A DNA stretch of 15,255 nucleotides from a virus (lineage: Duplodnaviria; Heunggongvirae; Uroviricota; Caudoviricetes): the IMG/VR virus record IMGVR_UViG_2541047698_000010; one strand, written 5' to 3'. The translations under genes and the position numbers were made by a program. Of this stretch, positions 3,603 to 12,253 are shown in pieces (positions within the stretch are counted from its first letter, which is position 1; every line of letters starts with the position of its first letter). Under the pieces are notes generated by a model that was not told the origin of the DNA, made no database searches, and worked only from the letters and a program-made list of their open reading frames with translations.

Positions 3603-3965
3603 TTAACGACCTGCTGCGCGGAGTTTTCCGTCAGGTTCACCGGCAAGAGTCAGTAATTGTCCCTGGTCTTCCTGCAGAATAGTCAGGCGACCACCGCGAT
3701 TGACATACATCGGCGTTTCGGTGGTGTCTTCTTCGGAAATTTTCCCGCGGTTAGTTGGGCGAACATATGAGAGTTTGTGTTTGATTTTCACACGGTTCTC
3801 ATCAAACGGTTCGATTTCCAGATTGAGTGAGACCTTCCCTTTGGTTTTCGTGTTCATCACACCGGAAGCGACCTCACTGAGAACTGCGCCGATTTTGGTT
3901 TCAAATACGCCGCCGTCCAGCTCCCCGATAAATGCCTGCACATCAGTACTGCGTTCGCTAGCCAT
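3603..3965 (-). CDS. yfdP: Hypothetical early protein (YfdP-like, 120 aa)
   Basis: Start chosen at MASERSTDVQ (ATG 3965) with a GAGGAG Shine-Dalgarno. The ORF-track N-terminal extension into the GC-rich region is Arg/Cys/Gly-rich and looks non-coding. Confidence 0.6.
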   Translation of the reverse strand: MASERSTDVQAFIGELDGGVFETKIGAVLSEVASGVMNTKTKGKVSLNLEIEPFDENRVKIKHKLSYVRPTNRGKISEEDTTETPMYVNRGGRLTILQEDQGQLLTLAGEPDGKLRAAGR

Positions 3966-4014
3966 TTTGCTGCTCCTCATCATATCGACCCTGCAAGGTC
4001 GGTTGGTTTCTCCA

Positions 4015-4101
4015 CAAAACAGAGAAGAACACCTGCGGTGGCAGCCGCCCGGATGGATTGGGTTATGAGCCCGTCGTCCGGTGATGCTCTTCTCTGTTTT
4101 G
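4015..4101. repeat. Perfect inverted repeat: 14-bp arms (4015-4028 / 4088-4101) around a 59-nt GC-rich loop
   Basis: CAAAACAGAGAAGA at 4015-4028 is the exact reverse complement of 4088-4101. An inner CACC/GGTG pair (4030-4033 / 4080-4083) extends the stem. Confidence 0.7.
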
Positions 4102-4102
4102 C

Positions 4103-4148
4103 AAAAAAGGACGGTACCAGCCGGAAGCAAGGGTACAAACTGGTACCG
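4103..4148 (-). terminator. Candidate intrinsic terminator on the leftward transcript (tL-like), about 140 nt upstream of yfdP
   Basis: 9-bp perfect stem CGGTACCAG (4112-4120) / CTGGTACCG (4140-4148) with a 19-nt loop. On the minus strand it is followed by UCCUUUUUUGC (plus A-run 4103-4108). Confidence 0.5.
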
Positions 4149-4149
4149 C

Positions 4150-4367
4150 CAGGACTACACACAGCATAAAGTTGTGGTGCCGGGTGCCTCCCGGTGCCTG
4201 GCGAAGGTTGCACACCAGGCGGGTGGGTATCCACAGAAGGTCGACTGTCAGCCTCAACCTTAACCCGCGTGCGCTGAGCCGCATTCACCACAACGCTAAG
4301 GATTCTCTCTGGTTGAAAATACTTAGCTGTTATGTGCCTGCTTTTAGCCACATCAGGCGAGGTGGAC
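4150..4367. other. GC-rich, highly structured non-coding block (candidate cis-acting RNA element or ncRNA)
   Basis: GC content clearly above the flanks. Several nested inverted repeats (GCCTGG/CCAGGC at about 4197-4220; AAGGTTG/CAACCTT at 4204-4210 / 4255-4261; GTGG/CCAC at 4223-4234). The ORFs here are Arg/Pro/Gly-rich with no Shine-Dalgarno. Confidence 0.35.
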
Positions 4368-4435
4368 CTGGTTATTCCCCAACAACAAGGATTCGGTTAA
4401 TCTGGATATCCCCAACAACAATAAGAGTATTCAAT
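4368..4435 (+). repeat. Two tandem 34-bp direct repeats (core CTGG-TAT-CCCCAACAACAA) abutting the start of the plus-strand gene
   Basis: 4368-4401 ctggttattccccaacaacaaggattcggttaat and 4402-4435 ctggatatccccaacaacaataagagtattcaat share a 12-nt identical core. Confidence 0.65.
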
Positions 4436-4459
4436 GTGATCGCTGAATTAACGGCAGCA

Positions 4460-4951
4460 ATGACGGCTATTCGTGAAACAGCCCAGATTGCAAAACTAAT
4501 GAACGAGGCAAAAACTCAAGCTGAAGTAAATGCGGCTATTGGTGAGCTGAACTCAAAGCTTGCGTCTATTCAGCGCGAATGCGTGTCTCTCGTTGAACTG
4601 GTGGGCTCTTATCAAGAAATAAATGCTTCTCTCAAAGCTAAAATTGCAGAATTCGAAAACTTTGAGGCTCAGACGGAAGGCTATATCCTTAACCAACTTG
4701 AGTCGGGTACTTTTGTATACTCGAAGGAGGTAATCGTGAACGGTGGCAGCATAACCATGCATCTTTGCCCAAAATGTTTTGGACAAAAGATAGTATCGAT
4801 ACTTCAACCATTCCCGGTTAGCGAAGATGAGCTTTTTCATAAAAGCAGGTGCCTCCACTGTGAAAATAAGTTTCTGATGAATAAAAATCCGGATTACGTA
4901 TCGCCTCCATCCATTGAGGAGTTGTCCAGAAAACTTAACGGCAATCTGTAG
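4460..4951 (+). CDS. Hypothetical coiled-coil / C4 zinc-ribbon protein (about 163 aa), convergent with cI and antisense to the pL operon
   Basis: N-terminal 75 aa are Ala/Glu/Lys/Leu-rich with heptad-like periodicity. C-terminus has CPKC-x24-CLHC. Own plus-strand terminator follows. Alternative GTG start at 4436. The ORF-track extension back to 4172 is GC-rich junk. Confidence 0.6.
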   Translation: MTAIRETAQIAKLMNEAKTQAEVNAAIGELNSKLASIQRECVSLVELVGSYQEINASLKAKIAEFENFEAQTEGYILNQLESGTFVYSKEVIVNGGSITMHLCPKCFGQKIVSILQPFPVSEDELFHKSRCLHCENKFLMNKNPDYVSPPSIEELSRKLNGNL

Positions 4952-4976
4952 ATTGCTACTGTTGTGGATATCCAGA

Positions 4977-4988
4977 TTGTTAAAGAGC
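4977..4988 (-). promoter_or_regulatory. boxA-like antitermination element (GCUCUUUAACAA) on the pL transcript
   Basis: Minus-strand sequence GCTCTTTAACAA is a 12/12 match to the rrn boxA core, about 100 nt downstream of the predicted pL start. A 6-bp hairpin (4941-4956) lies 20 nt further 3'. Confidence 0.4.
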
Positions 4989-4990
4989 TA

Positions 4991-5081: not shown

Positions 5082-5126
5082 TTGTTTCTCCTGGGTACAT
5101 TATGTATCCCAAAAGTACATTGTCAA
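5082..5126 (-). promoter_or_regulatory. Candidate pL promoter with OL operators
   Basis: Minus strand reads TTGACA (plus 5121-5126), a 16-17 nt spacer, then CATAAT (plus 5098-5104). Operator-type palindrome ATGTA-N9-TACAT at 5102-5120 and a degenerate copy TTGTT-N9-TACAT at 5082-5100, same geometry as the OR sites. Confidence 0.5.
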
Positions 5127-5165: not shown

Positions 5166-5840
5166 TTAGGCTTTGATTTTGTATCTTCTTGGTTTTCCTG
5201 AGAAAATCACAGTTCCAATTATAGAGCAATTACCGTTGATCTTAATGTAAGGCTCAGGCCAGTTTGGGTTTAACGCTTTGAGATAACGCTGTGTCCCATC
5301 TTCTATCAACCTTTTGAAGGTGGTTTCACCTGTATCGTGCATCAATGCAATAACGTCGTCACCGTGGCAGGCAGGTACTTCAGGATCGACAAAAATCATG
5401 TCTCCCGGGCGGTACTCATCAATCATTGAATCACCTATCACCCGCAAGATATAAGTCATTTCCCCACAGGGTACAGGGCAGGGATACGTTTCTGCTGTGC
5501 TCAAATCAACCTCAGAATATCCAACTTCTTTCCATGCTCCGGCCTGTACCCATGATATGACAGGGACTAATGTGATTTGTTTATTAGTGATTGAAACATC
5601 AGGTTTTTTTGTGATGTTCGTTGTCTGGTGTTCTTGATCGAGCCATCCGACAGGCAGGTCGAAACATTTTTCGATGTGTCGTGCCATGCTGTCACCGATA
5701 TTTTTAGTAGCACCATCTCCCATAAACCTGCTGGTCTGGGTTGGCTCGCGATCAATCATAGTGGCAAAGGAAGAATTCCCGCCAACACCATCTCTCAGTT
5801 TTCTGGCGTTAGACCGCCGGATGTCATGGATTGTTTTCAT
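5166..5840 (-). CDS. cI: cI-like prophage repressor (N-terminal HTH, C-terminal S24 LexA-type autopeptidase domain)
   Basis: 224 aa. C-terminal region has the S24 serine (..VIGDSM..) and a downstream lysine (..TFKRL..). Divergent from the cro-like gene, with palindromic operators between them. Confidence 0.9.
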   Translation of the reverse strand: MKTIHDIRRSNARKLRDGVGGNSSFATMIDREPTQTSRFMGDGATKNIGDSMARHIEKCFDLPVGWLDQEHQTTNITKKPDVSITNKQITLVPVISWVQAGAWKEVGYSEVDLSTAETYPCPVPCGEMTYILRVIGDSMIDEYRPGDMIFVDPEVPACHGDDVIALMHDTGETTFKRLIEDGTQRYLKALNPNWPEPYIKINGNCSIIGTVIFSGKPRRYKIKA

Positions 5841-5846
5841 AACGAA

Positions 5847-5925
5847 ATTAAAACCCTTGTACCGTTAAGGTACAAGTATCTTGAAGGTTCATTTCAATCA
5901 TGTAATATGTATACCGGAGGTACAT
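5847..5925. promoter_or_regulatory. Divergent pRM / pR promoters with OR operators
   Basis: OR1 TTGTA-N9-TACAA at 5857-5875 (perfect palindrome CTTGTACCGTTAAGGTACAAG). OR2 ATGTA-N9-TACAT at 5907-5925. pR is TTGAAG (5881-5886), 16 nt spacer, TAATAT (5903-5908). Candidate pRM on the minus strand (TTGTAC / TTTAAT) would start at or next to the cI ATG. Confidence 0.55.
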
Positions 5926-11852: not shown

Positions 11853-11869
11853 TTTTGTGGAGAAAGTTA

Positions 11870-12253
11870 ATGCGTGATATTCAGATGGTTCTTGAACGTT
11901 GGGGAGCGTGGGCGGCTAATAATCATGAAGATGTGACCTGGTCGTCCATTGCCGCCGGTTTTAAGGGATTAATTCCTTCAAAAGTAAAATCTCGCCCGCA
12001 ATGTTGTGACGATGACGCGATGATCATTTGCGGGTGCATGGCCCGTCTGAAAAAGAACAACAGCGATTTACACGATTTATTAGTAGATTATTATGTATGT
12101 GGTATGACATTCATGTCACTGGCAAGTAAGCATTGCTGCTCGGATGGTTATATCGGGAAAAGGTTACAGAAGGCTGAGGGCATAATTGAAGGGATGTTAA
12201 TGGCATTAGATATCCGGTTAGATATGGATATCGTTGCTAATAATTCTAATTGA
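11870..12253 (+). CDS. Q: Late-gene antiterminator Q (phage 82 / DLP12 QuuD type)
   Basis: 127 aa from the ATG at 11870 with GGAGAAA upstream. [26 protein letters not shown]... is recalled as 82-type Q. The ORF-track TTG at 11855 is unlikely. Confidence 0.8.

Follow-up and report, generated by a model that had tools for sequence, protein, structure and literature searches.

STnc100 and PasD have been described as small RNAs (sRNAs) of prophages (bioRxiv 10.64898/2026.05.13.724894). PasD, which belongs to prophages of enteropathogenic and enterohemorrhagic Escherichia coli, was found by Hfq RIL-seq (sequencing of ligated interacting RNAs) and Northern blotting, and it ends in an intrinsic terminator with a U-tract that is described as its likely Hfq-binding site (bioRxiv 10.64898/2026.05.13.724894). 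KilS, an sRNA from the 5' untranslated region of kilR in E. coli K-12, was verified by RIL-seq and Northern blotting (PMC8175672). Here we analyzed a 15,255-nucleotide (nt) stretch of Caudoviricetes DNA (IMG/VR record IMGVR_UViG_2541047698_000010), called the window below, which covers a lambdoid prophage's immunity and early region. A preliminary description made from the sequence alone had singled out positions 4150 to 4367 as a GC-rich, highly structured noncoding block inside the leftward transcription unit that starts at the promoter pL. On the minus strand of this block we find a 124-nt RNA core, new and unannotated, that belongs to the STnc100/PasD family as a divergent "type 2" member. 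The core is followed by a tail of the KilS/DicF type, and the window RNA is thus a mosaic of the two. The best reading, in which we have moderate confidence, is that this is a pL-derived, terminated sRNA of the base-pairing type whose terminator also attenuates the operon.

A type 2 STnc100 core on the minus strand

The block is noncoding and highly structured, as first described. Its G+C content is 0.585 at 4100-4299 and 0.565 at 4000-4199, compared with 0.41 to 0.47 in the flanks, and nested inverted repeats are present, including 4171-4179/4286-4294, 4216-4224/4263-4271, and 4295-4307/4315-4327. Its placement between the plus-strand gene (4436-4951) and the terminator (4148-4103) was also correct. 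The block is therefore real, but its boundaries had to be moved: the functional unit is 4327-4101 and not 4367-4150, with a 5' hairpin (4295-4327), a core of 64% G+C (4171-4294), and a linker plus terminator (4170-4101) as the conserved parts. The minus strand of 4095-4340 folds with -96.8 kcal/mol (z = -3.6), a value that none of 200 shuffles equaled, whereas the plus strand of the same interval has z = -1.3 and was equaled by 24 of 200 shuffles. Because only the minus-strand fold beats its shuffles and the family models match that strand, the structured RNA is the minus strand. A leader or noncoding RNA for the plus-strand gene, one of the roles first considered, does not fit a signal that lies on the other strand in both the fold z-scores and the models. 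The parts of the core and its 5' neighbor are as follows.

4295-4327, minus: 5' hairpin (GCUAAG...CUUAGC) directly upstream of helix P1, from an inverted repeat, the minimum-energy fold, and the Rfam alignment
4171-4294, minus: 124-nt structured RNA core, STnc100 type 2, from the Rfam match, the R1 model (below), and covariation
4294-4286 with 4179-4171, minus: closing helix P1, 9 bp
4285-4283, minus: AAU junction
4282-4267, minus: hairpin A, which carries a bulged A and whose U-N-N-G-C loop is closed by C-G
4266-4263 with 4224-4221, minus: short helix P2
4261-4255 (AAGGUUG) with 4210-4204 (CAACCUU), minus: 7-bp pseudoknot between the strand just after P2 and the loop of hairpin C
4220-4213 with 4203-4196, minus: hairpin C
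4194-4180, minus: invariant hairpin T (CCGGG-AGGCA-CCCGG), one spacer base after hairpin C

Hairpin T adjoins P1 with no unpaired base between them, which suggests that the two are stacked. In all cores, hairpin T (4180-4194 in the window) always shows a Shine-Dalgarno-like GGAGG across stem and loop.

We searched Rfam, as the preliminary description had proposed. The default search at the gathering cutoff was empty, and a permissive search gave a single significant match, STnc100 (RF02076), so that the element does match an RNA family even though none had been recognized at first. The match runs from 4324 to 4101 on the minus strand over model positions 1 to 206 (40.3 bits; E = 2.6e-7) and spans the 5' leader, core, linker, and terminator. 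The 5' hairpin lies within the region matched by the 5' part of the model and is partly conserved in Salmonella phage ST64B. An exact 20-nt STnc100 signature stands at 4195-4176, the motifs GGUGAAU ... CACCGGGAGGCACCCGGCACC are shared, a multihairpin core is closed by P1, and the 3' terminator (stem 4148-4140/4120-4112 plus U-tract) aligns to the terminator of the model. The window shares with STnc100 and PasD a P1 with inner GGUG/CACC, the AAU junction, the CUNNGCGNA-type top of hairpin A, hairpin C, the invariant hairpin T (CCGGGAGGCACCCGG), and the prophage setting. It differs in the stem of hairpin A (GCGG.../...CGC, where canonical copies have CCCC.../...GGGG), in the extra helix P2 of type 2, and in the pseudoknot, which is absent from the Rfam structure. 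All type 2 copies tested against STnc100 score 33 to 41 bits, below the cutoff, and the canonical copy of phage HK639, between a tRNA and the holin gene, passes it with 52.6 bits. The type 2 model matches this HK639 copy in turn (44.8 bits), and the joint alignment covaries.

Covariation analysis, also proposed at the outset, revealed compensatory changes across the relatives. A structure-segmented alignment of 21 type 2 sequences had 97.9% of its cells paired, compared with 78% in shuffles, and changes on both sides in 22 pairs. P1 and hairpins A and T covary even though position defined them in this alignment; for hairpin C and the pseudoknot the fit was made sequence by sequence, which biases their 100% pairing. 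The sequences of hairpin C and of the pseudoknot are wholly different between subgroups with complementarity kept, and the pseudoknot strand pairs include AAGGUUG/CAACCUU, AAGGCUG/CAGCCUU, CAGUUAA/UUAACUG, UGGUUAU/AUAACCA, and AGACUGACA/UGUCAGUCU. Shuffling the loop within each sequence gave p values of ~0.004 to 0.3 per sequence, and a cross-partner matrix that allowed G-U pairs was too noisy for use. The case for the pseudoknot therefore comes from the several distinct complementary strand pairs and the 21-sequence alignment and not from shuffle controls.

We built a covariance model, R1, from Qin/Rac-type E. coli cores alone, with window-type sequences left out. R1 found the window core with 80.6 bits (E = 4.9e-22) over all 130 of its positions, with no noncanonical pair flagged; its next-best match in the window had 9 bits, and the plus strand had 4.8 bits. 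Aligning 110 matches (108 distinct sequences) under the guidance of R1 gave 95.7% paired cells, compared with 73% in shuffles, with changes on both sides in 23 of 30 pairs and 733 compensatory cells; fitting to the model inflates this pairing somewhat, but the slid controls (at most 46%) and the shuffles are still far off. These results show the structure of the core and its covariation.

BLAST, which had been proposed as well, found the element in SfV, SfII, SfIV, mEp460_4F5, ST64B, 118970_sal3, Cronobacter phage phiES15, and, unexpectedly, P1-like phages. The 20-nt signature ACCGGGAGGCACCCGGCACC occurs at no fewer than 120 IMG/VR loci, with 95 distinct cores among the matches listed, and the window-subtype signature GGTGAATGCGGC..GCGCACGCGG at no fewer than 120 loci in viral contigs. 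The latter is also present at 28 loci of the genome collection, in Escherichia, Shigella, Klebsiella, Raoultella, Enterobacter, Pantoea, and Mixta, as well as in two gut metagenome-assembled genomes labeled Veillonella and Collinsella, which are probably misbinned contigs. A core that belongs to so large a conserved family is not a one-off remnant of a foreign insertion, the third role first considered. The subfamily lies below the Rfam cutoff and is unannotated, and in RefSeq it is missed or called a frameshifted pseudogene. Type 2 copies stand on the sense strand of early operons, and examples are listed here (L numbers denote loci of our collection).

ST64B: type 2 core between a cI-like gene and the yfdP homolog
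phiES15: type 2 core before kil and gam
Phage P1: type 2 core in the ban-operon leader, between upl and tciA, among tRNA genes
K-12 Qin (L265 1955-2082): core that begins 20 nt past DicF and ends 27 nt short of the dicB start codon, 131.5 bits with R1
K-12 Rac (L264 3391-3263, minus): core just after KilS and 32 nt before kilR, 125.5 bits with R1

Both K-12 cores score 34 bits against Rfam STnc100, and neither is annotated. Whereas the annotated type 2 copies are in early-left leaders or the ban leader of phage P1, the canonical copies examined here and in the literature (HK639, L080, Stx2 phages, PasD) are late-region elements that lie between the lysis genes and either Q or stx; a canonical copy lies 75 nt after stx2B (PMC12370729), and PasD copies lie near Q (bioRxiv 10.64898/2026.05.13.724894). 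Tandem arrays of three to five cores ~250 nt apart also occur (L080 4381-5460, L023 2325-3351, L042 1727-2342, and L033 374-989), and the five-copy array of L080 has a Q-like gene on one side and the holin, lysozyme, and Rz genes on the other. The niche between Q-like and lysis genes is the usual place of phage tRNA genes. We also observed a third, more divergent core type (L006 2355-2489, in phage mEp460, and L230 3475-3590), which has 28 bits with R1 and the same helix P1.

A KilS-like tail and a proposed terminated sRNA

The core is followed by two further elements of the RNA, and a promoter lies upstream.

4149-4170, minus: single-stranded linker UUUAUGCUGUGUGUAGUCCUGG, 22 nt, candidate seed, homologous by alignment to the body of K-12 KilS
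4101-4148, minus: intrinsic terminator, a stem (4148-4140 with 4120-4112) and then UCCUUUUUU (4111-4103), from an inverted repeat and the fold
5099-5126, minus: pL, with TTGACA, a 16-nt spacer, and CATAAT, from a promoter scan (score, 11/12)

In an alignment, AUUGCUGUGUGUAGUC is common to the window, ST64B, phiES15, and K-12 KilS, and the terminator stems are wholly different. A motif scan found the linker motif in 34 of the 36 window-type copies, ~110 to 120 nt past the GGUGAAU motif at the core start. A linker conserved while the terminator stems diverge is what would be expected of a seed, which makes it a candidate for that part. Judged by sequence comparison, the linker and terminator (4170-4101) are homologous to KilS: the tail of the window reads AUUGCUGUGUGUAGUCCUGGCGG... 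and then continues into the terminator, as does KilS (Rac, b4833). KilS in turn resembles DicF of Qin, with 39.1 bits against the DicF model; the same model gives a weak match in the window (4109-4163; 15.7 bits, below the cutoff of 48). All of these tails lie in the early-left leaders of lambdoid prophages. In the late leader of HK639, a KilS-like motif, AAUUGCUGUGUGAAAAUG, stands between the tRNAs and the STnc100 copy (L009 44590-44615), and the same leader has an isrJ-like match at 44281-44353.

Upstream of the core, pL (5126-5099) is the sole good minus-strand promoter, just past the terminator of the repressor gene. Its spacer holds a 20-bp operator-like palindrome (5101-5120) that is repeated at 5906-5925, beside the rightward promoter region. 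Such a repeat is the arrangement expected of operators, and we take pL to be repressor controlled. This agrees with the earlier placement of the block within the leftward early transcription unit, and pL is likely the source of the transcript that carries the core. The same arrangement of promoter and leader is found in many related contigs. Before it reaches yfdP, the pL transcript must run antisense through the plus-strand gene and go on to cross the core, the terminator, and the long hairpin at 4101-4015. We rejected a dedicated promoter just upstream of the core, where the sole -10 candidate, CATAAC (4333-4328), has neither a final T nor a -35 element.

In the terminated-sRNA reading, loss of the repressor would allow pL to fire, and a share of the transcripts would end at the terminator, with a 3' end near 4103. 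This would release an RNA of ~225 nt or longer. Processing would generate its 5' end, as it does in DicF, and the RNA would be expected to accumulate as a discrete species. The released RNA would bind Hfq and act as a base-pairing sRNA, like STnc100, PasD, and KilS. The linker would serve as the seed, with the folded core as either a factor-binding domain or a stable body at the 5' end. Transcription into the genes from yfdP to int would be attenuated at this terminator (4148-4103) too.

Four observations count against this proposal, the first most heavily. Many type 2 cores have no terminator and end 27 to 42 nt before start codons (dicB, kilR, tciA of phage P1, and others), so that the core must have a role that is independent of a terminated sRNA. 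For Qin and Rac of K-12 the order is sRNA, core, and then dicB or kilR, so that the sRNA tail (DicF or KilS) lies upstream of the core and not downstream as in the window. The minimum-energy fold pairs the linker to 4340-4327 and would hide the seed in this way; a corresponding complement was not seen by eye upstream of the ST64B and phiES15 cores, and this pairing does not look conserved. Finally, the 40.3 bits of the window fall short of the STnc100 gathering cutoff of 47 bits.

A separate motif, CCACCUCGCCUGAUGUGGCUAAAAGCAGGCACAUAAC, occupies 4328-4366 on the minus strand, upstream of the 5' hairpin and apart from the conserved RNA. By eye it recurs with small changes in the leaders of L216, L219, and L234, and an exact-pattern count over all loci gave one (L223). 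In the minimum-energy fold, the 3' part of this motif pairs with the KilS-like linker to make a long stem around the core, which as modeled is possibly an RNase III substrate.

The core is widespread and occurs in K-12 itself, directly upstream of dicB and kilR, which inhibit cell division. Decades of work have gone into these loci, yet the core goes unmentioned there in the literature that we examined; for dicBF in particular, that literature makes no mention of a type 2 core between dicF and dicB. Recognizing the element removes spurious open reading frames (ORFs) from annotation and joins STnc100/PasD, KilS, and DicF into one modular system of early-leader RNAs. The K-12 core between dicF and dicB is an easy genetic handle on the role of the conserved core.

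Alternative readings of the core

In the strongest rival reading, which we consider rather unlikely, the core works in cis as a 5'-leader module on behalf of whatever follows it on the 3' side, be it as processing signal, 5' stabilizer, or ribosome-recruiting element. The core, possibly with a tRNA-like fold, would then define or shield a new 5' end or govern how the next gene is translated, and the sRNA tail would be what it happens to serve in the window. The terminator-less members fit this idea, since their distance of 27 to 42 nt from the start codons of unrelated genes is constant. So do the cores among tRNA genes (the ban-operon leader of phage P1 and the late leader of HK639) and the tandem arrays before lysis genes, such as the five copies of L080. 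Hairpin T adjoins P1 without a spacer, like a T arm on an acceptor stem, and its GGAGG is constant. A 6-nt complementarity (GCUGAU/AUCAGC) between the loops of hairpins A and T in the mEp460-type variant suggests an elbow-like contact. However, no tRNA was called by ARAGORN in the window, the loop of hairpin T is 5 nt long and not 7, there is no CCA end, and the loop-loop complementarity comes to 2 to 3 bp in the common core types. In addition, ~200 nt, including the terminator and the long hairpin, separate the core from yfdP in the window. A broader version, which is possible if doubtful, takes the STnc100-type core as a mobile, pseudoknotted, perhaps tRNA-like cis device that enterobacterial phages use at operon heads, immediately before the toxic genes dicB and kilR, among tRNA genes, and as tandem arrays ahead of the lysis genes. 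Such a device could engage RNase P or RNase E, the ribosome, or RNA polymerase, and it could set 5' ends, stabilize or translate the downstream RNA, or alter elongation. If so, the sRNA forms (STnc100, PasD, and the window copy) would be one use of the module.

The preliminary description had listed a put-like antitermination RNA among the candidate roles. The core would then be a processive cis antiterminator whose nascent RNA binds RNA polymerase and carries it through the terminator (4148-4103) and Rho sites, in place of N. We judge this improbable. The idea draws on several features. The core is on the sense strand of long phage operons, and in the window it precedes the one strong intrinsic terminator that the pL operon has, with no further convincing one found farther down than 4148-4103. 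Its conserved unpaired nucleotides and pseudoknot suggest binding of a macromolecule. No N-like gene was found between pL and int among the window ORFs, the annotation, and the Pfam and PHROG matches. The core RNA shares with put of HK022 and HK639 that it is structured, encoded in cis on an early operon's sense strand, and placed ahead of a terminator in a lambdoid phage that has no N. However, put is ~70 nt long, has two stem-loops, and follows pL immediately, whereas the window RNA is a 124-nt multihelix pseudoknot ~800 nt downstream of the pL -10 element (5099 versus 4294; ~350 nt in ST64B). HK022 putL, located by its published base pairs, and the annotated HK639 putL align with each other and not with the block, and the block has no sequence or structural similarity to them. 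R1 has no match in the HK022 loci or at HK639 putL, and HK022 and HK639 are absent among the BLAST matches listed for the window element. A 16-nt resemblance between GCGGGUUAAGGUUGAG and put GCGGGUUCAGGAUGAA occurs in different structural contexts, and we judge it to be chance. The leader of the pL operon is occupied in lambda too, by nutL and N, but the window has no gene at the position of lambda N, no boxB-type hairpin in the core, and its boxA elsewhere (4989-4977).

The element is not a member of the put family. PasD, which has the same core, accumulates as an RNA that ends at the terminator next to it, and a terminator of this sort is part of the STnc100 model; this speaks against efficient read-through. 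The Qin and Rac cores lie after the DicF or KilS terminator, canonical copies are in Q-controlled late operons with several per operon, and a different conserved RNA holds the put position right after pL. Given the termination of PasD, the place of the Qin and Rac cores after the leader terminator, and this other RNA, a put-like function of the core is less likely on the evidence.

~5087-5022 (invariant at 5075-5054), minus: promoter-proximal conserved RNA, ~65 nt, starting ~10 to 15 nt after the pL -10 element

The invariant 22-nt core of this promoter-proximal RNA, GGCAGGACGCCCACGAAGUAGC, is present in nearly all copies. Its outer helix covaries (GCGAA/UUCGC, GUCAU/AUGAC, CCACC/GGUGG), as does its apical hairpin, and the window copy has 2 mismatches in the outer helix. 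It lies downstream of many types of promoter and operator in lambdoid IMG/VR contigs, has no match in Rfam, and was not found as a sequence in the literature searched. An obligate linkage to the STnc100-type core was rejected: only 6 of 74 new loci with the promoter-proximal RNA have a core within 3 kb downstream, and the two are therefore independent modules. The promoter-proximal RNA, at the position of HK022 putL, is a better put-like candidate than the core.

A riboswitch-like aptamer that controls the downstream terminator (window, ST64B, and phiES15) or the ribosome-binding site (dicB and kilR) is very unlikely. The core does have a P1-closed junction with a pseudoknot and invariant unpaired bases, and it stands directly upstream of a terminator or 15 to 25 nt ahead of a Shine-Dalgarno sequence. 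CGCCAGG, the 3' strand of hairpin C, would be able to pair in the window with CCUGGCG at the base of the terminator. However, this pairing overlaps only 2 nt of the terminator stem and, by eye, is not kept in ST64B or phiES15. As it was the sole candidate, we found no conserved, mutually exclusive pairing. Rfam searches matched no known riboswitch family, and the linker between P1 and the terminator is conserved for another reason, its homology to KilS.

We give almost no weight to a protein-coding gene, either the 123-amino-acid ORF at 3980-4351 (minus) or the frameshifted hypothetical pseudogene that the NCBI annotation pipeline PGAP places on identical DNA: the ORF exists, and a small PHROG of unknown function matches its residues 82 to 117, but that sole "protein" match (phrog_33599) maps onto the neighboring long hairpin (4015-4101) and not onto the block, no Pfam family was found for the ORFs across the block (3980-4351 minus, 4063-4284 minus, and 4081-4263 plus), the 123-amino-acid ORF is not kept in ST64B, relatives differ inside it by 1-nt and other nontriplet, frame-breaking indels, and the substitutions compensate for RNA helices. 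The earlier statement that the block has no credible coding frame thus holds, and the Pfam and PHROG matches include no protein-coding homolog over the block, which the preliminary description had named as evidence to the contrary.

Gene context and neighboring elements

The rest of the window is arranged as follows.

1-1164, minus: integrase gene
Minus: early-left genes of the CPS-53 type, yfdT, yfdS, yfdR, yfdQ, and yfdP (yfdP at 3603-3965)
4015-4101, minus: long conserved hairpin between the terminator and yfdP, with 24-nt arms that are 83% complementary
4436-4951, plus: gene of unknown function
5166-5840, minus: S24-peptidase repressor gene
Rightward: genes for CII and replication, the Q antiterminator (11855-12253), a porin gene, and lysis genes

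The 501-nt leader stretch at 3950-4450 has 100% identity with phage PhiR49_1 and many E. coli prophages, and similar DNA is present in 3,087 of 5,426 complete E. coli genomes. The long hairpin at 4015-4101 is within this leader but outside the STnc100-type RNA, and it is kept in ST64B. By-eye comparison of its arms suggests a compensatory change (GAGAAGAG/CUCUUCUC in the window versus GAAAAGAG/CUCUUUUC in ST64B). After this hairpin, just before the yfdP ribosome-binding site, the minus strand carries GUGGAGAAACC and a small hairpin (3986-4013), and a similar motif of GUGGAGAAAUC plus a hairpin follows the cores in the Pantoea loci L239, L240, and L243.

The plus-strand gene (4436-4951) looks like an inserted cassette. 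It is bracketed by 19-nt inverted repeats that are 95% complementary (4399-4417 and 4960-4978), and direct repeats of TCCCCAACAACAA (4376-4388 and 4409-4421) adjoin the left arm. In L216 the cassette and its flank are present beside a Qin/Rac-type core.

On the pL transcript we observed an rrn-type boxA, AGCUCUUUAACAA (4977-4989, minus), which matches UGCUCUUUAACAA at 12 of 13 positions (chance expectation, 0.04). A small hairpin, GCAAUCUACAGAUUGC (4941-4956), follows it after 20 nt. Together (4989-4941) they look like a nut-like or anti-Rho site in a phage without an N-like gene between pL and int.

In ST64B, the region downstream of sb40 (L002 5732-5920) has isrK (64.3 bits) and C4 antisense RNA (79.7 bits) matches above the Rfam cutoff, and these are unrelated to the STnc100-type core.

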